A DNA stretch of 64,000 nt, from positions 148,436-212,435 of the forward strand of contig JBKJLI010000003.1 in the NCBI GenBank assembly GCA_046597065.1, given 5' to 3'. Below, piece by piece: positions 4,578 through 37,126 of the stretch (within the stretch, counting starts at the first letter, position 1; every line of letters starts with the position of its first letter). This stretch comes from Candidatus Saccharimonadia bacterium (GTDB taxonomy: Bacteria; Patescibacteriota; Saccharimonadia; UBA4664; SCTI01). The translations under genes were made by a program, and so were the position numbers. Under the pieces are notes generated by a model that saw only the letters and a list, made by a program, of their open reading frames with translations, had not been told where the DNA came from and did no database searches.

Positions 4578-5179
4578 TTGCTTCTGACCTCCGTCGGTTG
4601 GGTGGGGATCAAGACCGCTACACTATACCATAAGTATTATAATAATACAAGTATATTATATATTGCTAGTTTATGCACTGGGCAAATTGCCGCCATGGTA
4701 TAACGTGGCTAGTATTCGATCTAAACACCCCCATATACCACTAGCATGACAGCTAAAGTTGACGTTAGGATGAGGCTGTTTCCTATTTGGTATGCCCCAA
4801 CCAGATGAGGAACTTATTCCGTTTTAGCGCGATCGACAGCATCGAATTCGCTTGAAAACGGGTTATTACTAATATAAAGTGGTAATCCCAACCTTTACAT
4901 GGAGGCTGGAGCAGCTTACATATAGGAGAAACATTGATGACTTGCCCCTTAAGCATTAGGAGCAGCGGTCGAGAGCATCTTTTTTTCGACCAATCCTCAG
5001 CCAAAGCGCGCATGTCTCTTGGGTCAAAGGCTGGGCTTTATGAGCCACCGCTCGAGCCCAATGAAGTTCCAGACGACCTAGTAGGCCACGCCGACTAAAC
5101 CCAGGTGGGGCTTCTCGTTCCCAAACTCCAACTTTGTAGAAAACTTCCATATCCAGCGATGCTAGAAAGGAGGTACGTC

Positions 5180-26859: not shown

Positions 26860-28130
26860 AGCACCAAATCACCACTCTGCCCAATGGTCTGCGGATTGTT
26901 ACTCAAGAAATGCGCGAATCTTACAGTGCCAGCGTTTCGGTAGTGGTTGGGGTTGGCAGCCGCTACGAAGACGCCACCACCGAAGCCGGTATATCGCACT
27001 TTCTAGAACACCTTATGTTTAAGGGCACCAAGCAGCGCCCCAGCACCAAGGTTATTTCAGAGCAGGTTGATGCTGTCGGTGGCTACGCCAACGCCTACAC
27101 CAGCAACGAGTTAACCGACTACTACATTAAGGTGCCGTACCAACATGTTGAGTTAGCTGTTGATGTGCTTAGCGACATGCTGAGAAACTCTAAGCTTGAT
27201 GCCAAAGAGATTGATCGTGAACGGGGAGTGGTGCTAGAAGAAATGAACGTTTACCGCGACAATCCATCGAGCTACGTGCACAATCTACCACCGGAGTTGT
27301 TATGGCCGGGTCATGCCATTGCTCGCGACGTTATTGGCACCGAAGAAGTGATTAAAAAGGTTAACCGCGCCACCATTAATAGCTACTGGCAGCGCTACTA
27401 TCGCCCGTCTAACATGGTGCTGGCCGTGGCCGGCCGAGTTAAGCACGCCGCTGTAGTTAAGCTAGCCGAGCGCTATCTTGGCGACATGGTCGACGCCGAA
27501 ATCCCTACGCCTGACCCGGTGACCAAACTACTTTCCAAGCAAACCACCAAGGCTTTAATTAAAGATACGGCTCAAACCCACCTGATCATCGCCGCACCGG
27601 GGTACCAAGCGCTGCACCCAAATGGAGCCGCCGCCAAGCTACTAGCAACGATACTTGGACATGGTCTGAGTTCTAGGCTGTTCCTAAACGTTCGCGAACG
27701 CAAGGGCCTGGCCTACAGCGTTAATGCCAACCATAGCTCATTTACCGATACTGGTGAGTTTCAGGTTTATGCTGGTGTTAACCTGGCTAAAACCGTTGAT
27801 GCCATAGCTGCCATCATCGAAGAGCTGCAGCTAATAGTTACTAAGCCGGTTGGTGTCAGTGAGCTGTCTAAAGCCAAAAACCAGATTAGAGGTGCTTTGC
27901 AGATGTCTCAAGAAAGTAACTCGTCGGTAGCCGACCGCTTGGGATATCAACTGCTGCTTCAGGGCAAAATTCGTACCCTTAAAGCAGTGATGGCAGAAAT
28001 TGATGCCGTTACCCCCAAGCAAATCCAGGCCGTCGCCGCCGAAATGCTCGACCCGTCACGATTGCGCTTAGCCATCATTTCGCCAGCGCCAAAAAAAGCG
28101 GTGACGGCTTTTAACCGTTTGGTACAATAG
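26856..28130 (+). CDS. M16-family zinc peptidase (insulinase-like)
   Basis: HFLEHLMFKGT (HxxEH) near the N-terminus. 424 aa. Confidence 0.85.
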   Translation: MKHQITTLPNGLRIVTQEMRESYSASVSVVVGVGSRYEDATTEAGISHFLEHLMFKGTKQRPSTKVISEQVDAVGGYANAYTSNELTDYYIKVPYQHVELAVDVLSDMLRNSKLDAKEIDRERGVVLEEMNVYRDNPSSYVHNLPPELLWPGHAIARDVIGTEEVIKKVNRATINSYWQRYYRPSNMVLAVAGRVKHAAVVKLAERYLGDMVDAEIPTPDPVTKLLSKQTTKALIKDTAQTHLIIAAPGYQALHPNGAAAKLLATILGHGLSSRLFLNVRERKGLAYSVNANHSSFTDTGEFQVYAGVNLAKTVDAIAAIIEELQLIVTKPVGVSELSKAKNQIRGALQMSQESNSSVADRLGYQLLLQGKIRTLKAVMAEIDAVTPKQIQAVAAEMLDPSRLRLAIISPAPKKAVTAFNRLVQ

Positions 28131-28175
28131 TTCGGTATCACGCCCCGTAATTATTAAATTTTTGAGGATAACAAA

Positions 28176-28682
28176 ATGGAACAAACATTAGTTGTGTTTA
28201 AGCCACACGCCGTTTCACGCGGCATAGTAGGTGAGGTACTCAGCCGTTTTGAAAAGGTAGGTTTAACCATTGTGGGTATTAAAATGGTTCAACCCGACCG
28301 CAAACACCTGCATCATCACTACGAAACCATAGGCAAGGTGGTTACCCGCCATGGCCAGGAAATATTTGATAACACCTTAGATATGATGATGGCAGGCCCG
28401 GTAGTTGCTGTAGTTTTAGAAGGTATCGAAGCGGTTGAACTAGTGCGTAAGATGGTTGGTCCGACCGAACCAAAAAGTGCTCCACCAGGTACAATTCGTG
28501 GTGATTTTGCACATATAAGCTATGGTCACGCCGATGGAGAGGGTATCGGAATCCCTAACATAGTGCATGCATCGGGTGATCTGGCTGAAGCTAAAGTAGA
28601 GGTTGCTCACTGGTTTAATGGTAGTGAAATCTACAACCATTCTACGGTTCATAATGTCGGTACTCACAAACCTACAAAGTAG
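28176..28682 (+). CDS. ndk: nucleoside diphosphate kinase
   Basis: MEQTLVVFKPHAVSRGIVGEVLSRFEKVGLTIVG... with the active-site NIVHASGD. 168 aa. Confidence 0.9.
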   Translation: MEQTLVVFKPHAVSRGIVGEVLSRFEKVGLTIVGIKMVQPDRKHLHHHYETIGKVVTRHGQEIFDNTLDMMMAGPVVAVVLEGIEAVELVRKMVGPTEPKSAPPGTIRGDFAHISYGHADGEGIGIPNIVHASGDLAEAKVEVAHWFNGSEIYNHSTVHNVGTHKPTK

Positions 28683-28841
28683 CTGCTTAGCGTACTGATA
28701 ATTAGTAAATGACTAGGTGTGAAGACAATATTGATAAATATAGTGTTCAAAGTCGCCATACCTAAATAGTTAAAGGGCCAGGAATATCCTGGCCCTAGGG
28801 CTAGCCGGTCTTATCGCCGGCCTCGCCTGGTTGCATCTCAA

Positions 28842-29381
28842 CTACTGGCAGTGGCCCGTGAGGTGATGGCTGAGACACTCCGTTTCGTACATTCTTGGCC
28901 AATTGTTGCGATCGACTTCCCACCATTCGTTGGGCCAAGTGTCGTAGTAGTGCAGGTGAATGTCGCTCCTAGAGCGATAACGACCGCACTTGGAGCATAC
29001 GTAGCGTGGGGTGTGCTCTAGAACTTCGAGTTCGGCCACTGAACACAACCCCATGTGGCGACCATTCTGCGGTCTGTCCGGGTCGCACAACCTGAGTTCG
29101 TAGCCCATCCAAAATGGACCCAGACCCATGCTGTCCCATCCGTCACCCGGCAGGGTGAGGTCTCGTACCACATAGGTCTGCGGGGTGCCATTTGAAGGGA
29201 AGATACCCGTTCCGGCAACTCGGACCAAGTAACCTCTCATAGTTACTCTAAACAGCATGGCCTTTTCGTGGGTGATGCCAGCAAAAGGGCCGACATCGAT
29301 TCCGGCGATCGGTGCAAACGGATCTTCAACTGCCGCAAGTGCTCGATCCCACTGCGACGTAACTGCGGCTGCTGCCGACAT
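28842..29381 (-). CDS. hypothetical protein, GC-rich, Cys/His-rich C-terminus (possible HNH-like zinc-binding module)
   Basis: 179 aa, much more GC-rich than the flanks. C-terminus CSKCGRY...HLHYYD...NNW...CLSHHLTGHC. Ends 78 nt from tRNA-Arg. Confidence 0.4.
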   Translation of the reverse strand: MSAAAAVTSQWDRALAAVEDPFAPIAGIDVGPFAGITHEKAMLFRVTMRGYLVRVAGTGIFPSNGTPQTYVVRDLTLPGDGWDSMGLGPFWMGYELRLCDPDRPQNGRHMGLCSVAELEVLEHTPRYVCSKCGRYRSRSDIHLHYYDTWPNEWWEVDRNNWPRMYETECLSHHLTGHCQ

Positions 29382-29458
29382 GATTTACCATCCTTATTGA
29401 AAGATCGGGATGGTGTAGTTGTAATTCAGATTATGTCTCGATGTAAGCATAAGTCCAT

Positions 29459-29534
29459 TGGCGCCCCGGGAGAGATTCGAACTCCCGACGCCCTCCTTAG
29501 GACGGAGGCGCTCTATCCACTGAGCTACCGGGGC
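29459..29534 (-). tRNA. tRNA-Arg (anticodon CCT)
   Basis: Manual fold: acceptor GCCCCGG/CCGGGGC, D-arm GCTC-AGTGGATA-GAGC, anticodon stem CCTCC/GGAGG with loop GTCCTAA, T-arm GGGAG-TTCGAAT-CTCTC, discriminator G, CCA encoded. Confidence 0.8.
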
Positions 29535-29612
29535 ACGCTAGCCGAAATTATACCAGATGGTGTATTAAGAGCGCTTATGGTCAAAGCCTCGGCGCACAAG
29601 TAAAATACTTGC

Positions 29613-30131
29613 ATGGCCAAAAAATCCAATCAAACCGCCAAGGAGTTTCCGGGGCAACACGACGACGAAACCGTGGTACTAGTATTTCGCCAGCATCCAG
29701 TGGTGATGCGGATGGAGCTAATTTTTGGCATGCTAGCTATTTTGGCAGGAACGGGGCCTCTTCTGTTATGGCCGTTATCCGATCTCGCACTTAAGATATT
29801 TTTAATCATCCCTTTGCTAGTATTGGTGTACTGGTTTTACCACTGGGTGGGTTGGTATTACAGCGTATATATTATTACCGACCTGCGCCTTATTGATATT
29901 CGCCAACACGGCTTTTTTAACCGCAAGGTTAGCGAGGTCGGGTTTGATAAGGTGCAGTCGGTTAACTACCACATTAAAGGGCTGCAGGCGGCATTACTTA
30001 AGTTTGGTGATATTACAGTACAAACCTACACCGGTGATTGGGTGTTAAAATCGATATATCACCCCGAAGAGGTTCATACCCAGATGATGAAGGTGGCTCA
30101 CTCGGTTACCTCGACACCGCCAATCAACTAA
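29613..30131 (+). CDS. membrane protein with bacterial PH (YdbT/DUF304-like) domain
   Basis: Two TM helices followed by a YdbT-like PH fold. 172 aa. Confidence 0.55.
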   Translation: MAKKSNQTAKEFPGQHDDETVVLVFRQHPVVMRMELIFGMLAILAGTGPLLLWPLSDLALKIFLIIPLLVLVYWFYHWVGWYYSVYIITDLRLIDIRQHGFFNRKVSEVGFDKVQSVNYHIKGLQAALLKFGDITVQTYTGDWVLKSIYHPEEVHTQMMKVAHSVTSTPPIN

Positions 30132-30164
30132 GGTAAGCTATTTACAGCATAAGGAGTATTCCCG

Positions 30165-31223
30165 TTGGAAGAGAATAAGAAGCCGGCGCGCAAGTCTGCC
30201 AGCAAGACCAAGTCGACCCCCAAAACCAAAACTGATGCACCGATTAACGCATCCGTTACTAGCGTCATGCCTAACACCGGCGATAACGCTCCAGAAATAA
30301 AATCCAATAATCCCTCGCTTCCGCGTAACTGGTGGCTAATTGGTGGCATTGTTGCCGGTTTTATCGCCATTTTCTTGTTGGTGTTTGGAATACTGATATA
30401 TAAGTACAAGAATGATAGTCGCATTACTCAAGTGGTTGCTTCGGTTGTGCCGTATCCAGCCGAAAGCATTAATGGCCACTGGGTCAGCTATTCTAACTAC
30501 TTGTTCGAAGTTAACTCTATTAAGCATTACTACCAGAGCCAGACTACCGATGATAACAAGCCATCCGTCGATTTTAATTCCAAAGAAGGTAAGGCCAAGT
30601 TAAAGCAGCTGCAAGAGCAGGTTATCGATCAGCTTAAGCAAGAGTCGATGATTCGACAAATTGCCGCGAAGCATAAGATCAAGCTTGATAAGAACAAGGT
30701 AAAGGAAAACATCGACCAGATTACCAAGTCGGCCGGTGGCGACTCCAAGGTTAAGGAAGTCTTAAAAAAGTACTATGGTTGGGACTTAAACGATCTTAAG
30801 CGCAAGGTTGAGTTCCAGGTCTTAAAGCAGCAAGTATCCGACAAGGTTAAGGGCGATGAAAGCTTAAACGCCCAGGCCAAAAGCAAGGCAGAGGACGTTT
30901 TAAAGCAGGTTCAAGCCGGTGGCGACTTTGCCGAACTAGCCAAAAAGTACTCTCAAGATAGCTCAGCCGCTAATGGTGGTGACCTAGGGTTCTTTGGTAA
31001 GGGCCAAATGGTAAAGCCGTTCGAAGAGGCCGCTTTTGGCCTACAAGTTGGCCAGGTTTCTGGAATCGTAAAAACCGATTACGGCTACCACATTATTAAG
31101 GTAACCGCCAAAAAGGACGACCAGGTTCAGGCCTCGCACATCCTAATTAAAAGCATCGATTTCGATCAGTACGTGCAGGATGAGTTAAAGAAAGCCAAGG
31201 TTCAGCAGTACATCAAGCCGTAA
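30165..31223 (+). CDS. membrane-anchored parvulin-type peptidyl-prolyl isomerase (PrsA/SurA-like)
   Basis: N-terminal TM ([23 protein letters not shown]). C-terminal rotamase [41 protein letters not shown]...GYHIIKV. Confidence 0.8.
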
Positions 31224-31244
31224 GGCGCTAAATAAGTCCGTTGG

Positions 31245-31276
31245 GCGGCGCCAGGAGATTTAACTCCTCGCGCCGC
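31245..31276. terminator. 13-bp GC-rich hairpin at convergent gene ends (overlaps RT stop codon)
   Basis: gcggcgccaggag-atttaa-ctcctcgcgccgc with one mismatch. A T-rich run lies on the minus-strand side. Confidence 0.45.
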
Positions 31277-32234
31277 AATTGTATCGACCCCCCATTTGCA
31301 AGTGGGCGTAGTAGATCCGTAAATCACGCTCAGACAGACGATGAGATGGATCGCCAAATGGACCGCTGTTTGCCATTATAGACATGAAATGCGCAATATG
31401 GCCCTCCAGGAGAGCTTGATCAACATTGCTACCACGGCTACGTGCCCTGAGCAGTTTTTCGATCTCTCTCCGCTGTTTGCCGGGAACGAACAAACGTCCA
31501 CCGTACTCCAGCCCAACTCCAGCGATCACGATCCGCTGATGCTTCTCCAGATCAATTACTTGGGCCTTCGATCGTGAGATTGAAAAGCCGGCTGCTCGAA
31601 TGGCTCCGCGTAGTGCCCGGCGCTTGTGCTTACCAATCGGCTGTTGACTGCTAAAAGTCAGGTCATCGACATAACGGGTGTAGGTAACGCCCCATCGCCG
31701 ACACAGAACGCCTATGTCAAAGTCGAGATACTGCCGGCAGTACAGGTTGAACAGGTCTTGCGATGCCGGCCCGCCGAAGCGTAGCCCTTTGCCACTGCCC
31801 AGCAGGCAGTAGTCTTGCAAAAACCTCATCACTGCCTCATCACCAAGCAGTGAGAGCTGGTCTGCTCCGTTACCGAAACAGGCCGCCAACCTTAGCCCGT
31901 CAACGTTTTCGTAGGCCCGGTATAGATCGTAGCCAACCACGTACCGATTCTCACGATGGGGAAGAATGTTGTCGACTATTGAACTACCAGGCTTTGCCGT
32001 GGCATAGAGGTTAGGGAGCCCCTGGCGCCGCAGTACGACCAGTAGTCGGCTCTGGACAACTCGGGTATGATCGTTGGGGTCATGGATCAACCGTCGCTTG
32101 CCCTTAACCTCTTTCCAGTAGGAGTTAAAGCCGGGCTGCCCCGGCGTATTTGCCGTAAGCTGCTCGATTTCAAGGAACATATTGCCTTTCAGTTGGTTGC
32201 CCAGCAAGGGTGGTCTGGAAGGATCCACCGGCAC
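31260..32234 (-). CDS. compact reverse transcriptase, DGR-like by motif (YVDD; motif-4 GxxxSQ); retron/defence-RT not excluded
   Basis: 324 aa, RT domain only. Motif 4 GLRFGGPASQDLFNLY: Ser-Gln where group II and retron RTs carry Ser-Pro. Motif 5 YTRYVDDLTF. No maturase or endonuclease domain. GTG start with the SD aaggtgag upstream. GC-rich. Confidence 0.8.
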   Translation of the reverse strand: MPVDPSRPPLLGNQLKGNMFLEIEQLTANTPGQPGFNSYWKEVKGKRRLIHDPNDHTRVVQSRLLVVLRRQGLPNLYATAKPGSSIVDNILPHRENRYVVGYDLYRAYENVDGLRLAACFGNGADQLSLLGDEAVMRFLQDYCLLGSGKGLRFGGPASQDLFNLYCRQYLDFDIGVLCRRWGVTYTRYVDDLTFSSQQPIGKHKRRALRGAIRAAGFSISRSKAQVIDLEKHQRIVIAGVGLEYGGRLFVPGKQRREIEKLLRARSRGSNVDQALLEGHIAHFMSIMANSGPFGDPSHRLSERDLRIYYAHLQMGGRYNCGARS

Positions 32235-32244
32235 ATATTTACTT

Positions 32245-32600
32245 TTTACTCACCTTAACTAAATGCCTGGCCATGCTTGCAGGTCAAATTCGACCCATAG
32301 CTGGCGCGGCCTCGGCCTTGGTGCCCGTCCGTACCGCGAGGCACGGGGGCGATAGGGCGCTGGCGCTGTAGCGGACCTGCTCCCCGCGCCCCGACCACAG
32401 CTTGGTCGGAGAACGCAGCGGTGGCAGTCACGCCATTAGACCCCCGACATTACGAGAGCCGATTCCTACCGTTGGAACAGTAGGACTGCAACTCGCCGCG
32501 TGCTTTATAGGCAACTGGCGATGCGGGCATCCGACGAATCTTTAAATCCAGACCACCCAACACAGCTAGGCAAGCGCATTCTAGCCGTTTTCAGATAAGA
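32245..32600 (-). ncRNA. GC-rich hairpin-dense noncoding region upstream of the RT (candidate RT template RNA: DGR TR+spacer, or retron msr/msd-like)
   Basis: ~360 bp with no credible ORF on either strand. Multiple perfect hairpins, e.g. ccgaccacagcttggtcgg (7 bp) and gtgcc..ggcac. Same orientation as the RT and immediately 5' of it. Composition matches the RT, not the host backbone. Confidence 0.35.
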
Positions 32601-32622
32601 ACTCAATATTTGGGCTGATGTT

Positions 32623-32967
32623 TTAACAGCCGCCGTTTTGGTACTTGTCGCCCCACTTGGCCATGGCTCGAAGAATTGGCACTAAATCCCTACCCTTATC
32701 GGTAAGGGTGTACTCGATGCGCGGTGGCACCTCATGGAATGATTCCTTGGTAATAATCTCGCCGGCCTCCATATCATCCAGTCGTTGTGATAGTGTGCGC
32801 GGGCTAATTCCAACCAGCGAGTTTTGCAGCTGGCTAAACCTCCGCGGGCCATCAACCATATCGCGCAAAATCAGCCCCGACCAGCGATCGCCAACTACTT
32901 TTAAACTGGTGGCAATGCAGCCGCTCTTGGGCTCGATGGGGGACAGAATTTTATGGGTAGTTTTCAT
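32623..32967 (-). CDS. HxlR-family winged-helix transcriptional regulator
   Basis: ...VGDRWSGLILRDMVDGPRRFSQLQNSLVGISPRTLSQRLDDMEAGEIITKESFHEVPPRIEYTLTDKGRDLVPIL, the canonical HxlR/MarR-like wHTH. Start chosen at MKTTHKIL; an upstream Met is possible. Confidence 0.75.
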   Translation of the reverse strand: MKTTHKILSPIEPKSGCIATSLKVVGDRWSGLILRDMVDGPRRFSQLQNSLVGISPRTLSQRLDDMEAGEIITKESFHEVPPRIEYTLTDKGRDLVPILRAMAKWGDKYQNGGC

Positions 32968-33077
32968 AACGATTCTATTATGCACCATAATTCTATACTT
33001 TAAAATGTATAGTAATAGATCCCAAGGAGTATATATGAAAAACATCGCTGATATTAGATGAGCCGAATCATCCCGCA

Positions 33078-33449
33078 ATGCGTCATTACCAGCACGATCA
33101 CACTAAAAAGTGGTCTAAAATCGTGGATGAAGCCGATGGTTTTATTATAGTTACGCCAGAATATAATCATGGCTACTCGGCAGGACTAAACAACGCCATC
33201 GATTATTTATACAAAGAGTGGACCGGCAAACCCGTTAGCTTTGTAAGCTATGGAGGGGTATCGGGGGGTCTACGTGCGGTAGAGCAGTTACGCCAGGTTG
33301 TGATTGAGTTGCGTATGCAGCCACTGCGCGAACAAGTATCAATACCGTTTGTGAGAGGTGCAGTTAGGGAAGGCAAGCTGCCACACGATGATGCTAGACA
33401 TAAGCAACTACAAACACACTTAGCTGATTTAGCAAGCAGCCTAAGCTAG
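33078..33449 (+). pseudogene. NADPH-dependent FMN reductase family, 5'-truncated remnant
   Basis: The ORF begins inside the conserved core (ADGFIIVTPEYNHGYSAGLNNAIDYL aligns to ~residue 70 of SsuE-type enzymes). The N-terminal GSxRxxSxN FMN-phosphate loop is missing. A strong SD plus ATG upstream opens only an 8-codon out-of-frame stub (MKNIADIR*). Confidence 0.55.
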
Positions 33450-33469
33450 AATCATAGAATCAAACGAAG

Positions 33470-33515
33470 AAGAGCCCGAAGGCAAAGACATTTAAGTCAT
33501 CTCCTTCGGGCTCTT
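33470..33515. terminator. 13-bp hairpin between convergent genes
   Basis: aagagcccgaagg ... ccttcgggctctt with a ~20-nt loop. Lies between the FMN reductase remnant stop and the small peptide stop. Confidence 0.4.
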
Positions 33516-33525
33516 TAGGCCTGTT

Positions 33526-33645
33526 TCAGCTGAGGATCATCAGTACCAGAGTTGCACCAACGGCAACCCCTGGGCCGATAAATCCGGTGATCAACGCAAC
33601 GAAGATCACACAGGCAAAGACCTGAACAGTCTCATGATCGCGCAT
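33526..33645 (-). CDS. small hydrophobic membrane peptide (39 aa)
   Basis: MRDHETVQVFACVIFVALITGFIGPGVAVGATLVLMILS. GGAGG SD ~11 nt upstream of the ATG. Not in the ORF track because it is <60 aa. Confidence 0.4.
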   Translation of the reverse strand: MRDHETVQVFACVIFVALITGFIGPGVAVGATLVLMILS

Positions 33646-33673
33646 TTAAACTATTGCCTCCAGGGCGTAAGAA

Positions 33674-33994
33674 CTACTTGCAGTTGGTGGTGATCGTCGG
33701 CGCAGAAGTACCGTAGACTACATTGTGCTGGCCTTCGGGCTGCTGGGTTAGCGAGAGAATCGTCAGACATCGCCTGAGTTCTCCGTTCTGAGGATCCTTC
33801 CAGGTGTTCCAGAGCGACATCTGGGTTAGCTTGACCTTGCCAAAGTCACGCTTTTTAACAGCCGCCGCACGAGCCGTCTCGGATTTGTGCTTTTCGTTCG
33901 AGAACGTTGGATAGGCGATGGCGCCCAAGATCAAGATGATCAACATGATCACAGCGAGCTCAGTAAATGTAAGGCCGTACTTAAATTTCTTCAT
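33674..33994 (-). CDS. orphan type IV pilin-like protein
   Basis: Start at MKKFKYG|LTFTELAVIMLIILILGAIAYP (Gly-1, Glu+5). C-terminal Cys pair. ggagg SD 9 nt upstream. Confidence 0.65.
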   Translation of the reverse strand: MKKFKYGLTFTELAVIMLIILILGAIAYPTFSNEKHKSETARAAAVKKRDFGKVKLTQMSLWNTWKDPQNGELRRCLTILSLTQQPEGQHNVVYGTSAPTITTNCK

Positions 33995-34220
33995 TCGGCT
34001 TAAGCCTCCAGGTTTCGGGGTGCGTCGCACATCGAGGACGTGAGAACGACTTATTGTACGATATATCTGGGCAATAGTCTAGCGGTAAATATTTATATGC
34101 TTGTAGCCAACTTAATCAAAAAGCCCCTCATGGCATAAGCCTTAAGGGGCGGCGGCAGACTCTCCGGTTATTTGAGAGTCTGCCCGGGGTTTGCACAGAT
34201 CTAGCCCCAGCTGAGGTGGG

Positions 34221-34685
34221 TTAGGTGGGTAGTGCCTTAGACTTAGCCGATTCGCTGATCTTGAGATCTAGCTCATCAAGCTGGTCGCGATCAAAACCGG
34301 CTGCAAGAGCCAGCTCGCGCATCGCTTTGTATCGCGCTCGGCTCCCATTCGGACTCTGTGAGTCGAAGGCGCTTGCCAAGATTGCTACCACTCCACCGGC
34401 AGGGTCTCCGTGAACCATATGGCTGTTGGCTACTTCGATGAGGTAGGGCTGAGTAGAACCAAGTTCGATGAGCGTCTCGATGACTCTGGGCTGAAGTTCA
34501 GCCAGTTGGGCATCGTTACGTGGGGCATTGAACTTGAAGGCCTGCAAGAACTTGGCGCGGAATTCCAAATCTTGGAGCTCCAGTTCCTCGGTATTGCGGG
34601 CCTTGTTCTTGGCCCGCAACTGAAGCGTGATTGCCATCAACACAATGATGACGATGATCAGAGCTGCATCGATGAACCAAATCAT
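34221..34685 (-). CDS. hypothetical N-terminally membrane-anchored protein
   Basis: Start placed at MIWFIDAALIIVIIVLMAITLQL, with AGGAGG SD 10 nt upstream. The longer ORF-track version would run into tRNA-Asp. Confidence 0.5.
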   Translation of the reverse strand: MIWFIDAALIIVIIVLMAITLQLRAKNKARNTEELELQDLEFRAKFLQAFKFNAPRNDAQLAELQPRVIETLIELGSTQPYLIEVANSHMVHGDPAGGVVAILASAFDSQSPNGSRARYKAMRELALAAGFDRDQLDELDLKISESAKSKALPT

Positions 34686-34776
34686 TTTACCGTATCCTCC
34701 TGGTTGGTGGTGTACGCTCACGGCAAAAAACCTTGAGATGCTGAATATCATACAATAAATAGCTGAATAAGTCCAA

Positions 34777-34853
34777 TGGCGGGCCCGACCGGATTCGAAC
34801 CGGCGATCTCCTCCGTGACAGGGAGGCATGTTAGGCCTCTACACCACGAGCCC
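34777..34853 (-). tRNA. tRNA-Asp (anticodon GTC)
   Basis: Manual fold: acceptor GGGCTCG/CGGGCCC, anticodon stem CCTCC/GGAGG with loop CTGTCAC, T-arm GCCGG-TTCGAAT-CCGGT, CCA encoded. Confidence 0.8.
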
Positions 34854-34953
34854 ACACCTTGAATAACTGATTTATACTAGCACCAAATACCGTCGGTTGC
34901 AATCTGTTAAATCGGCATAAAAAGTTAAGCATAAGTTGAATCGTTAGCCATCG

Positions 34954-35370
34954 ATGACCTATAATAAAGAGACTATGGATCCAAAAGAAACATCTAAGCC
35001 AATTCGAAGCTCTCGTAGCATTGACGCCGTGGCCAAGCGAGCATCCTCGACATCGCCGGCCGCAAGTCGTCCTCCGGTTGCGATTTCCTCGAAGCGCAGT
35101 GGCAATGTCATCGATCTTCGTAAGCCAGCAAGTGAACCTAAACCAGTTGAAAAGCCCGAGCTTAAAACCACCCCCGGACACAAAGCTAAGCCTAAAAAAG
35201 AGGCAGCCAAAAAGGCCGAACCCATAGCTGCAGCTTTGCCAATGCCGAGTGGCAGCGCCCCAAGGCGTAAGTTTTGGCCGGCATTTGGGCGATTTATCAT
35301 TCTACTCATCGTATTATCCGCCTTGATAGCCGGCGCCTATTACGTTTATATAACTTATTACCACACCTAG
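34954..35370 (+). CDS. Lys/Pro/Ala-rich protein with C-terminal TM anchor
   Basis: 138 aa. Low-complexity basic region followed by FGRFIILLIVLSALIAGAYYVYITYY. Confidence 0.45.
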   Translation: MTYNKETMDPKETSKPIRSSRSIDAVAKRASSTSPAASRPPVAISSKRSGNVIDLRKPASEPKPVEKPELKTTPGHKAKPKKEAAKKAEPIAAALPMPSGSAPRRKFWPAFGRFIILLIVLSALIAGAYYVYITYYHT

Positions 35371-35374
35371 AGCA

Positions 35375-35827
35375 ATGCAAGAGCGGGCGGTACCACACCG
35401 GTTTGCCGACCACCTGGTGGTAGTTTTTGCCGTTTTAGCCTTAGCGTTTAGCTTGAGTTACTTAGAGGTAGTTCGGCCAACCATTAGTGATCTAGCGCAC
35501 CAGCTTGGGCTTACTGCCGTTTACGCACCAGCTCCCGCTAAAGTCGAGGTGGCTCAGCCTCAGCCAGCACCTACCCCAGCCCCCGTGGTTCAGCCTACCC
35601 CAGCGCCGGCACCAGTTGTGGCCCCACCAGCGGCACCGGCCGCCAAAACTGCAGCTACAGTCTCTTTTGTGCATATGCGTGCCGGTAAAAGTACCTCAAC
35701 AGCTATTGTGCTAGATCTTGATGGTGGCACCGTTGTAACGCTGCGTAATGATAGCGACCCCACCTGGCAGGGGGTATCTGTAAATGGTAAAGACGGCTAC
35801 ATTTACAAGACCTATCTACAATATTAA
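35375..35827 (+). CDS. membrane-anchored protein with Pro/Ala-rich linker and C-terminal bacterial SH3 (SH3b) domain
   Basis: TM segment, PAPTPAPVVQPTPAPAPVVAPP linker, then VSFVHMRAGKSTSTAIVLDLDGGTVVTLRNDSDPTWQGVSVNGKDGYIYKTYLQ, which is SH3_3-like. Confidence 0.6.
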   Translation: MQERAVPHRFADHLVVVFAVLALAFSLSYLEVVRPTISDLAHQLGLTAVYAPAPAKVEVAQPQPAPTPAPVVQPTPAPAPVVAPPAAPAAKTAATVSFVHMRAGKSTSTAIVLDLDGGTVVTLRNDSDPTWQGVSVNGKDGYIYKTYLQY

Positions 35828-35956
35828 TTCTGGCTGATCGGTTCTTCCAAAACTAACATTTATAACAGTCACAGCTTTGGAACTCGCACCAATGTTACCA
35901 AGTAAGGACTCAGCGATACTAACTCATGTAACTTAACGAATTGGGGAGGGTAAAAC

Positions 35957-36133
35957 ATGGGTCGCTCAAGGGGAAGTAAAATCAAATCATTACGGGCCAA
36001 CCCGTATTTAGATCCGAATCTGTTTTTTATGAGTTTAGAAGAGGCCAAAAATTTAATATCCGGCAAGCAAGAGTTTGAGAGTTTGGCCGAGCGTCATGAA
36101 CGACCCAAGCCCAAGCCTATTCGCTCGATGTAA
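35957..36133 (+). CDS. hypothetical small protein (58 aa)
   Basis: GGGAGGG SD 6 nt upstream of the ATG. MGRSRGSKIKSLRANPYLDPNLFFMSLEEAKNLISGKQEFESLAERHERPKPKPIRSM. Confidence 0.3.
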   Translation: MGRSRGSKIKSLRANPYLDPNLFFMSLEEAKNLISGKQEFESLAERHERPKPKPIRSM

Positions 36134-36406: not shown

Positions 36407-37126
36407 TTATGGTTTCAGCTCCCTTAGAGCAATATCAGCCCTAAGGGCCATACGTTCTACAAGTAGCTCGGAAAGCTGCCGCTCCTGGCCTGGCGTTAGG
36501 TCTGAGACTCGGTGCTGGGCATAAAAGTCGGCTAGCGAAACACCAACTTCTGCCAGCCATCTTTTGGTGTCGGTCATAGTGGGGCGGCCGGTTCTGTTAC
36601 GACCGGACACTTTAACCGGATGAACAAGCGGGTTGCCAGTTACCCGCACGCCGAGCATTGTTGACGCGTCTAGGTGCAGAGCTGGCACCCATTGGTGTAG
36701 CTGCGTTGACAGTTGCAGCCGCTTCATCGCCGCAAAGCGATCATGCGCAACTTGTGAGGAAGACTTTAGCCCAAACATTTTTACCAAGTCGCTGTCGAAG
36801 TAGCCAAGAGGCTTCAGCCGGCAAAGTAGCAAGATGCACCATTGGCGAGCAGCGGTAGCTTCGGGTTGTCTGTTTCCGCCCTGCATTTGCTCCAACGGCA
36901 TCCTGGTGTTTTGGGCGACAGTGCAAAGCACAAACCAGGTAACCCGGCACTTTTTGGCGAAAGCACTATTGCCGTATTCCAGCTCAGCTTTAATTAGGCG
37001 GATTTCCAGCTTACGAATGTGGCGCGCTTCGGTTTCACGAGCTTTTTGGGCCACCGCGTTGTCGATTGCTCGACGCAGACTGGCGCGGTCCTGTGGGGCC
37101 AGCGTATCCATCGAGTATCCTTTCAA
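36407..37126 (-). CDS. hypothetical protein, GC-rich, next to tRNA pair
   Basis: Longest ORF in a GC-rich patch (239 aa; probable start at MDTLAPQDR). No recognisable motif. The + strand ORFs in this patch look like antisense noise. Confidence 0.4.
   Translation of the reverse strand: MKGYSMDTLAPQDRASLRRAIDNAVAQKARETEARHIRKLEIRLIKAELEYGNSAFAKKCRVTWFVLCTVAQNTRMPLEQMQGGNRQPEATAARQWCILLLCRLKPLGYFDSDLVKMFGLKSSSQVAHDRFAAMKRLQLSTQLHQWVPALHLDASTMLGVRVTGNPLVHPVKVSGRNRTGRPTMTDTKRWLAEVGVSLADFYAQHRVSDLTPGQERQLSELLVERMALRADIALRELKP

Follow-up and report, generated by a model that had tools for sequence, protein, structure and literature searches.

A candidate minimal retron from Saccharimonadia that pairs a retron-clade reverse transcriptase with a family-specific non-coding RNA and has no linked effector

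The current view of retrons is that of defence systems with three parts, comparable to toxin-antitoxin systems: the complex of reverse transcriptase (RT) and multicopy single-stranded DNA (msDNA) restrains an effector. The effector of Ec86 is of the NDT type, and Ec78 and Ec83 possess an ATPase together with an HNH nuclease. Among the defence-associated reverse transcriptases (DRTs), DRT2 consists of a solo RT and a structured non-coding RNA (ncRNA). By definition, a retron comprises an RT, an ncRNA and a linked effector gene or fused domain, and in type VI the RT is accompanied by a Cro/C1-type helix-turn-helix (HTH) protein and a small three-helix auxiliary protein (Mestre et al. 2020, PMC7736814). 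According to another study, an accessory component or effector has not been identified in about 25% of retrons (PMC8632793). DRT9-type systems are described as an RT and an ncRNA without a separate effector gene (PMC12483538), and UG38 is a small group of the unknown group/abortive infection (UG/Abi) RTs present in bacteria of the candidate phyla radiation (CPR) (PMC9226505). In this study, we report the analysis of a 64-kb stretch of the chromosome of a Candidatus Saccharimonadia bacterium (contig JBKJLI010000003.1; hereafter the window, to whose positions all coordinates refer), in which an RT gene is preceded by a GC-rich, strongly folded region.

The locus is best read as a minimal retron formed by a 306-aa retron-clade RT and its cognate ncRNA of about 370 nt and of the msr/msd type, which lies directly upstream on the same strand of the Saccharimonadia chromosome; such a module would be expected to produce msDNA, and we give this reading a probability of about 0.78. 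The observations at its base are the retron-clade RT, the adjacent RNA with a conserved core and bracketed by an inverted repeat (arms a1 and a2), the co-inheritance of RT and RNA, and the lack of a linked effector. As judged from sequence comparison, the family of this RT is a distinct retron clade without linked effector, found almost only in Patescibacteria and provided with a new RNA motif of its own. The features of the module are collected in Table 1.

Table 1. Positions of the features of the retron-like module in the window.
Feature	Position	Strand	Remarks
Retron-clade reverse transcriptase	31260..32180	(-)	306 aa from ATG 32180; RBS-like AAAGG 5 nt upstream (RBS, ribosome-binding site)
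13-bp hairpin, one mismatch	31245..31276		Lies between the convergent genes for isomerase and RT and spans the stop codon of the latter (inverted-repeat search)
Whole msr/msd-like ncRNA, ~370 nt	32200..32570	(-)	Fold, GC content, no Rfam match, no coding signal
a1, 5' arm of closing repeat, GGGUGGUCUGGA	32547..32558	(-)	Inverted-repeat search
a2, 3' arm of closing repeat, UCCAGACCACCC	32208..32219	(-)	28 nt upstream of ATG 32180
Conserved two-hairpin core, presumed RT-recognition (msr-like) element	32437..32488	(-)	Model R1, 27.9 bits, E = 4e-4
Variable, very GC-rich hairpin region, presumed template (msd-like)	32220..32436	(-)	Folds; msd role inferred
Promoter-like TTGAGT-17 nt-TAGAAT	32578..32606	(-)	Sigma-70-like, 9/12 consensus matches

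The list of open reading frames (ORFs) contained the RT gene as an intact ORF at 31260..32234 (-), with 324 aa from GTG 32234, and both motifs RYVDDLTFSS and LRFGGPASQDLFNLY were present in it. The Pfam scan revealed RVT_1 alone (E = 6.6e-9), with no maturase, X or endonuclease domain, and AlphaFold modelled a single compact RT fold (predicted local distance difference test, pLDDT, 85.8; predicted template modelling score, pTM, 0.82). The 25 best PADLOC matches of the window RT were all retron RT models, among them RT_VI (2.6e-25, 87 bits), RT_II-A (9.3e-24, 82 bits) and RT_X (1.9e-21, 75 bits); every retron RT model of PADLOC matched it, and none of the UG/Abi models was among its top matches. 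In NCBIfam the top match was retron_St85_RT (3.7e-26), and Drt2 (26.5 bits, cut-off 390), Drt3a (21 bits, cut-off 200) and group_II_RT_mat (TIGR04416; 17.7 bits, cut-off 300) were also scored. When the PDB was searched with phmmer, retron RTs were the only matches at E < 0.01 (Ec83 with 8.4e-11, then Ec78, Ec67 and Ec86), the next being Drt2 at 0.019. The profile of the family alignment (A1, 23 members including the window RT) recovered Ec86 nearly over its full length (8e-33, 117 bits) and Ec83 (1.5e-31), the top group II RT being GsI-IIC with 1.7e-9 (41 bits) and Drt2 reaching 1.4e-6 (31 bits). On the same profile and at the same database size, bRT of phage BPP-1, the prototype RT of the diversity-generating retroelements (DGRs), obtained 20.8 bits (E = 0.002); its hhalign E value against the family was 2e-7 and its BLASTP E value against the window RT 0.12. 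At the structural level, the 18 best Foldseek matches of the AlphaFold model in the PDB were all retron RTs (3e-15 to 1e-11, template modelling (TM) scores of 0.6-0.7), and the DGR RT 8ub7 appeared at rank 22 (1e-9). A tblastn search of 50,697 phage records with the RT gave matches in nine records; the annotations comprised four of retron-type RT, two of plain reverse transcriptase or RNA-directed DNA polymerase, one hypothetical and three lacking any, and there was no DGR annotation among the matching records. Placed in this way by profile and predicted structure, the RT belongs with the retron RTs.

At the diagnostic position of motif 4, the 23 aligned members have SP (13), SQ (5), SG (3), ST (1) or IP (1), with the consensus G.PASPDLFNLY. 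Given that SQ is present in only 5/23 members and that the consensus is Ser-Pro, the Ser-Gln of the window RT is, by this alignment, a lineage-specific substitution and no DGR hallmark here. Another retron signature is an NAxxH-like region, and the family consensus motifs are N[VI]xxH, Y[TV]RYxDDLTFS and [IV]TG, VTG having also been described as a retron signature (PMC8632793). The window copy has NILPH in the N[VI]xxH region and IAG in place of VTG, and it keeps all 20 invariant family residues of the alignment, YxDD included. All 23 members match the 13 retron-type RT models weakly and about equally (1e-22 to 1e-33); none stands out, and the best family-wide PADLOC models are RT_III-A and RT_II-A. 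Since no retron-type model is preferred across the 23 members, the RT family is, on profile comparison, a retron clade of its own, outside the 13 described types.

The first residue of the 22/22 aligned homologues aligns with Met19 of the ORF (MFLEIEQ..., ATG 32180), pLDDT is below 50 at residues 1-16, and the a2 arm falls inside the opening codons of the GTG-started ORF. For these three reasons, the real start of the RT is probably ATG 32180 and not GTG 32234. The locus had previously been described in a note made from the letters of the DNA (hereafter the sequence-only reading), which reported an intact 324-aa ORF with YVDD and Ser-Gln in motif 4 and without maturase or endonuclease domain. 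This description holds, with Pfam RVT_1 as the sole domain, except for the GTG start, in whose place ATG 32180 is the probable one. Its classification of the RT as DGR-type does not stand, because retron RTs are its closest counterparts in the profiles, in the PDB structures and with the AlphaFold model. The same reading had named a phylogenetic placement in retrons as its refutation, and this placement is obtained here from profile and structure; the Ser-Gln on which it had relied as the DGR hallmark is outnumbered in the family by SP (5/23 against 13/23).

The region 32200-32570 has a GC content of 0.598, within the top 0.5% of 371-nt windows, and the RT and RNA module as a whole (0.558) is within the top 1.1% of 1.3-kb windows, the window mean being 0.497 with a standard deviation of 0.022. 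No ORF longer than 58 aa occurs in the stretch from the RT to 32623, where the upstream HxlR gene has its stop codon. The minimum free energy of the fold was -168.9 kcal/mol (z = -4.2), which none of 100 dinucleotide shuffles equalled. In the scan of 28000-36000 the RNA had no Rfam 15 match at E <= 1, and the known RNA families found there, as well as in the whole window at the gathering threshold, were only tRNAs. The predicted fold consists of an outer stem (CCUAGC/GCUGGG), the a1/a2 stem, an inner 10-bp stem and a multi-branch of hairpins. Its arms a1 and a2 form a perfect 12-nt inverted repeat, 100% complementary, with 327 nt between them, and UUGCUGGG (32200-32207), directly 3' of a2, is akin to a (C)GCUGA(U) motif of the family. 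In the core, hairpin H1 has a 9-bp stem with the loop UCCA and hairpin H2 is built as GGCUCUCG...CGGGGGUC. Transcription from the promoter-like site would begin at about 32570, where the outer stem of the ncRNA begins. There were five such sites in the region against 2.3 +/- 1.8 in shuffles; since they are not enriched, the site is backed by its position only. No stop-free frame with coding signal was detected in the window RNA against dinucleotide shuffles (z = -1.3). From its sequence and predicted folding, the upstream region is a retron-type ncRNA.

For comparison across the family, 33 loci with a family RT (designated by L numbers) were assembled, some of them found by scanning GTDB species representatives. 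In 10 of the 33 the RNA is bracketed by a perfect inverted repeat of at least 12 nt, compared with 9 of 270 positions chosen at random in these loci; in the ten, the spans from a1 to a2 measure 158-426 nt and end 27-109 nt before the RT start. A GGUCUGGG-like G-run is common to the a1 arms, and (C)GCUGA(U) is found just 3' of a2 in many loci, including L007, L010, L019, L021, L026 and L033. In some folds this motif pairs with bases upstream of a1 to give an outer helix. All single-locus folds contain the a1/a2 closing stem, then two small hairpins and then variable hairpins, and neither length nor sequence of the hairpin region between core and a2 is conserved among the loci. A covariance model of the two-hairpin core (R1), with a seed of 10 sequences, matches the core at E < 1e-3 in 15 loci, adjacent to the RT; five of these (L002, L009, L012, L022 and L031) are outside the seed. 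Pairing was found in 86% of the cells of the core, compared with 66% in shuffles and 45-53% with slid partners, and two-sided changes occur in 15/16 pairs, with 0/500 shuffles reaching the observed covariation score. It must be noted that these counts lean somewhat towards structure because the alignment was fitted to the model. More divergent members were still not reached by a second model (R2).

The covariance search detected the core motif beside none of the other retron-like RTs (0/51 loci), and the sole match among the 55 loci searched (461 kb) was in L169 and lies beside another member of the family. In three loci (L009:6061-6318, L011:1662-1854 and L022:1113-1399) an ncRNA with the core and its own a1/a2 is located downstream of the RT, with no second RT after it. 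Therefore, the linkage of RNA and RT is independent of their order, as the downstream RNAs too adjoin only a family RT. The comparison of stop-free frames in the family RNAs with dinucleotide shuffles gave no consistent signal (mean z 0.5, with inconsistent strands), and a protein-coding role of the RNA, or a never-ending ORF of the DRT2 kind in it, was rejected as there was no consistent stop-free frame.

With respect to this upstream stretch, the sequence-only reading was essentially right in proposing an undescribed RT and ncRNA module with a functional RNA, now borne out by the core in 15 loci and by the a1/a2 bracket. The ORF-free, GC-rich and hairpin-dense character that it had noted was recovered (ORFs <= 58 aa, GC 0.598, z = -4.2), as was a composition like that of the RT and unlike that of the backbone (0.558 against 0.497). 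Covariance and structure analysis of the region, which it had recommended, gave the conserved, covarying two-hairpin core; the perfect 12-nt inverted repeat that brackets the RNA had been overlooked. Its further statements on the surroundings also agree with our results: the longest near-identical copy elsewhere in the window is a match of 18 nt, the neighbours are a PPIC/SurA-type isomerase, an HxlR regulator and a truncated FMN reductase, and neither an adjacent Avd nor a C-type-lectin target was found when the ten nearest genes were scanned. Conserved synteny, which it had suggested seeking in relatives, was not observed, the neighbours being different and no cluster being present in more than 4/33 loci.

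A third retron component, either as a linked effector gene or as a fused domain, was not found in the 33 loci. When ORFs of at least 60 aa within +/-3.5 kb were clustered by BLAST, no recurrent neighbour formed a cluster in more than four loci, and the clusters obtained were housekeeping genes at varying distances. Clustering by phmmer of ORFs of at least 35 aa within +/-2 kb gave none in more than three loci, the small recurrent 'ORFs' being translated tRNA genes. The immediate neighbours in the family loci encode UvrB, MiaA, TGT, ClpB, glutaredoxin, a SET-domain protein, RmuC, MarR, an aminoacyl-tRNA synthetase and permeases; the only HTH proteins among the neighbours scanned with Pfam were the MarR regulator and an HTH-fused EPSP-synthase-like protein. 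In the window, the HxlR gene lies directly upstream on the same strand, with the FMN reductase gene divergent from it. The latter (33078-33449 (+)) covers positions 55-149 of the 152 of its profile, so that positions 1-54, the N-terminal third, are missing. None of the ten window genes flanking the RT had a significant PADLOC match to a defence function, the HxlR gene giving two marginal matches (E 0.005-0.007). In consequence, a hidden effector near the RT was rejected on the negative result of both clusterings in the 33 loci and of PADLOC on the ten window neighbours. A type VI retron acting through HxlR was likewise discarded, given that no HxlR-family neighbour recurs in the 33 loci and that no retron type is preferred.

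A HMMER scan of 1.84 billion representatives gave 583 clusters (50% identity) of the RT family at E <= 1e-30. The best 150 of these clusters are almost all 290-350 aa in length, and thus fused effector domains are not a feature of the family. The exception is a sub-clade with a C-terminal DnaG-type zinc ribbon (PF01807; L167:4001-5236 (P0058), P0042 and L032), and no other additional domain was seen to recur in the family. Almost all relatives whose source can be named come from Patescibacteria, and their hosts include Saccharibacteria, Parcubacteria and Kaiser-, Lipton-, Kerfeld-, Harrison- and Andersenbacteria. The window itself falls in Saccharimonadia by its housekeeping genes, the M16 peptidase being 50-59% identical to its named homologues. 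In the literature searched on retrons in Patescibacteria, CPR, Saccharibacteria and Parcubacteria we found no description of this lineage. In the closest locus, L088 (isomerase 63% identical), the genes for Ndk, the bPH-protein and the isomerase are conserved, the sequence is unrelated after the isomerase, and the RT/RNA module is missing from the syntenic position; no precise empty insertion site was obtained from this comparison. The two-part module looks to have been acquired horizontally and by itself, because its GC content makes it an island, its neighbours change from genome to genome and it is absent from the syntenic position in L088.

Some additional observations concern the surroundings of the module. 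The hairpin that spans the RT stop codon has no T-run and was not called by terminator prediction; it is possibly a bidirectional transcription stop. In L031, a XerC/D-type tyrosine recombinase (Phage_integrase; L031:3614-4543) is encoded 89 nt upstream of the module and in its orientation; this is the only mobility gene seen adjoining a family member. In 7 of 31 loci (L003, at 4906-4978, L004, L015, L019, L020, L021 and L023) tRNA genes are found no more than about 500 bp from the module, for a rough expectation of about 3; in L003, where the core motif was not found, a tRNA-Arg gene ends 23 nt before the RT start. The window segment 28800-37200 breaks an otherwise plus-strand gene order and contains five tRNA genes (29462, 34780, 36174, 36251 and neighbours) as well as ORFs without family match at 33674-34030 (pilin-like), 34221-34829, 34954-35370 and 36407-37126; it looks like a variable region with the retron inside. 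A 179-aa ORF in this segment (28842-29381 (-)), without Pfam or PADLOC match, lies in a second GC-rich patch (0.56) and adjoins the tRNA gene 29462-29534, and at its position L088 has an unrelated 110-aa ORF. The start of the 202-aa ORF at 34221-34829 (-) is probably over-called, since its 5' end overlaps the tRNA gene 34780-34853.

If the locus is a minimal retron, the promoter at about 32606-32578 would drive a single transcript of ncRNA and RT. Folding and comparison show that the RNA closes by pairing of a1 with a2 and presents the two-hairpin core, to which the RT may bind as in the solved retron complexes of Ec86 and others. By analogy with retron biology, the RT would then use the 2'-OH of a guanosine close to the a1/a2 stem as primer and copy the GC-rich variable part into a multicopy single-stranded DNA still attached to the RNA. 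Given that the lineage has no linked effector, the resulting RT-RNA-DNA complex would act alone or through a partner encoded elsewhere in the genome. In this regard, the effector-less module recurs in hundreds of diverged members of constant length and with compensatory changes in the RNA, which implies selection on the two-part module. We tentatively extend this to a wider proposal, which is possible and on balance rather doubtful: a widespread Patescibacteria lineage of truly two-component retrons, in which a 300-aa RT and a family-specific ncRNA absent from Rfam would be kept, without a dedicated effector, among the core genes of very small episymbiont genomes, and in which the msDNA-RT complex would itself be the functional end-product (for instance as nucleic-acid decoy or sensor, or as cDNA effector) or would have a conserved housekeeping protein as partner.

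Several results weigh against the minimal retron. The absence of an effector departs from the tripartite definition; nevertheless, this state is not unprecedented, considering the quarter of retrons that lack an identified accessory component, and the statement that no neighbour is conserved comes from 33 loci with naive ORF calls. All curated retron models stay far under their family cut-offs (retron_St85_RT with 92 bits for a cut-off of 235), and the window copy departs from the family-typical VTG (IAG) and SP (SQ). With regard to the RNA, the 351 nt from a1 to a2 are long for a retron, the presumed msd consists of several hairpins and not of one long hairpin, and there is no invariant priming guanosine, a G being next after the perfect a1 arm in only 10/21 loci. 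Furthermore, the core is recognisable in only about 17 of the 33 family loci, and that of the window is the weakest confident match to the motif (26-28 bits).

The most serious competing explanation, which we nevertheless regard as unlikely, is a self-sufficient RT and ncRNA system working like DRT2 or DRT9, in which a triggered cDNA product (concatemeric, homopolymeric or forming a de novo gene) would be the effector. It would account for the missing linked effector, as the 33 loci contain a solo RT and a structured ncRNA without partner; the RNA may sit on either side of the RT gene, and in two AT-rich members, L022:1113-1399 (p = 0.017) and L012:704-922 (p = 0.033), one frame is nearly stop-free across the RNA, on different strands. 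However, over all members this signal is strand-inconsistent and absent (mean z 0.5, window z -1.3), the a1/a2 bracket has the priming geometry of retrons, and the RT is of the retron clade and not UG/Abi (Drt2 at 26.5 bits for a cut-off of 390, and 31 bits by the family profile), its ~300 aa being taken up by the RT fold so that a further C-terminal domain would not fit. Clearly less probable is a decaying remnant, that is, a former retron which, having lost the effector, has ceased to function in this genome. The truncation of the adjacent FMN reductase indicates a neighbourhood tolerant of decay, the site lies in a compositionally atypical, tRNA-rich variable stretch, and the window copy has the weakest core score and deviates at the two family-typical positions (IAG and SQ). 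Decay is hard to reconcile, however, with an intact ORF that keeps the 20 invariant residues and the catalytic YxDD, with an a1/a2 repeat perfect over 12 nt, and with the same effector-less layout in hundreds of diverged members of constant length whose RNAs show compensatory changes.

A DGR with a remote target, or an orphaned DGR, in which the upstream RNA would be template repeat (TR) and spacer and adenine-specific mutation would occur elsewhere, is very improbable. Motif 4 of the window (G-G-P-A-S-Q) fits the DGR pattern [LIVF]GxxxSQ, about 80% of the RTs in CPR bacteria are DGRs (PMC8632793), and the target could lie beyond the 64 kb covered by the repeat search. Against this, bRT reaches 20.8 bits on the family profile where Ec86 reaches 117 (BLASTP E = 0.12), 8ub7 ranks 22nd by structure, after 18 retron RTs, no DGR-annotated match came from the 50,697 phage records, and SQ is found in just 5/23 members. 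Sensitive blastn of 31000-33100 found no match longer than 18 nt in the window on both strands, the scan of the 10 nearest genes gave no Avd-like neighbour and no C-type-lectin or Ig-like target gene, and the inverted-repeat bracket with a covarying hairpin core is the anatomy of a retron and not that of a TR. A DGR identity of the RT was therefore rejected, its similarity to bRT being only generic and the window containing no pair of TR and variable repeat (VR). Even less credible is a fragment of a group II intron or other mobile retroelement: there is a generic RT similarity (GsI-IIC, 1.7e-9 by profile) and the insertion site differs in every genome, but the RT has no maturase, X or endonuclease domain, group_II_RT_mat scores 17.7 bits for a cut-off of 300, Rfam revealed no intron RNA, and the RNA lies outside the ORF instead of surrounding it.

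The interest of a minimal retron at this locus lies in a large and diverged lineage in which only RT and RNA are kept, evidently by selection, within genomes that measure about 1 Mb and shed most dispensable genes; what the RT-msDNA does by itself thus becomes directly testable. Should the msDNA-RT complex be its own end-product, or have a housekeeping partner, retrons would have a way of functioning that has not been described so far. The family also adds retrons to the retroelement repertoire of Patescibacteria, thought to be composed of DGRs by about 80% (PMC8632793), and it provides a new RT-associated RNA motif for annotation of the Rfam type. For annotation in general, Ser-Gln in motif 4 is an unsafe diagnostic of DGRs. 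In addition, such very compact RT/ncRNA pairs could be of interest for retron-based genome editing.

In comparison with UG/Abi defence RTs, which are usually longer than 400 aa and have a C-terminal alpha-repeat domain, the window RT has 306 aa, and its family resembles retrons far more than it does any of the UG/Abi RTs tested, UG38 being considered here by its description only. With DRT2 and DRT9 (UG/Abi class 2) the locus shares a single RT with a structured ncRNA and without separate effector gene, whereas the RT is of another clade, with weak similarity and with ~300 aa against DRT chains of 425-499 aa, and the RNA has the a1/a2 bracket of retrons and no signal of a never-ending ORF. Likewise, bRT of Bordetella phage BPP-1 (328 aa) is a compact RT, and the window copy carries the Ser-Gln of DGRs in motif 4, but the similarity is that of RTs in general and there is neither a TR/VR repeat in the window nor an Avd or target gene near the RT. 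FMN reductase is the usual partner of HxlR regulators. A resemblance to type VI retrons is given by RT_VI as the top PADLOC model of the window RT and by an HTH gene (HxlR) directly upstream on the same strand; nevertheless, RT_VI (87 bits) is barely above RT_II-A (82) and RT_X (75) and is not preferred across the family, and this HxlR is a winged-helix regulator divergent from an FMN reductase. The classical retrons of types II-A and I-A (Retron-Eco1/Ec86, Ec83 and Eco7/Ec78) differ from the window lineage in that the latter has no linked effector and prefers no retron-type model, has a longer, multi-hairpinned RNA whose core is absent from Rfam and from other retron-like loci, and has a host range apparently restricted largely to Patescibacteria. 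They are its counterparts, on the other hand, in an RT of ~300 aa of the same clade and fold (Foldseek TM 0.64-0.70) and in an adjacent ncRNA on the same strand, closed by a1/a2, in which small conserved hairpins are followed by a variable hairpin region.

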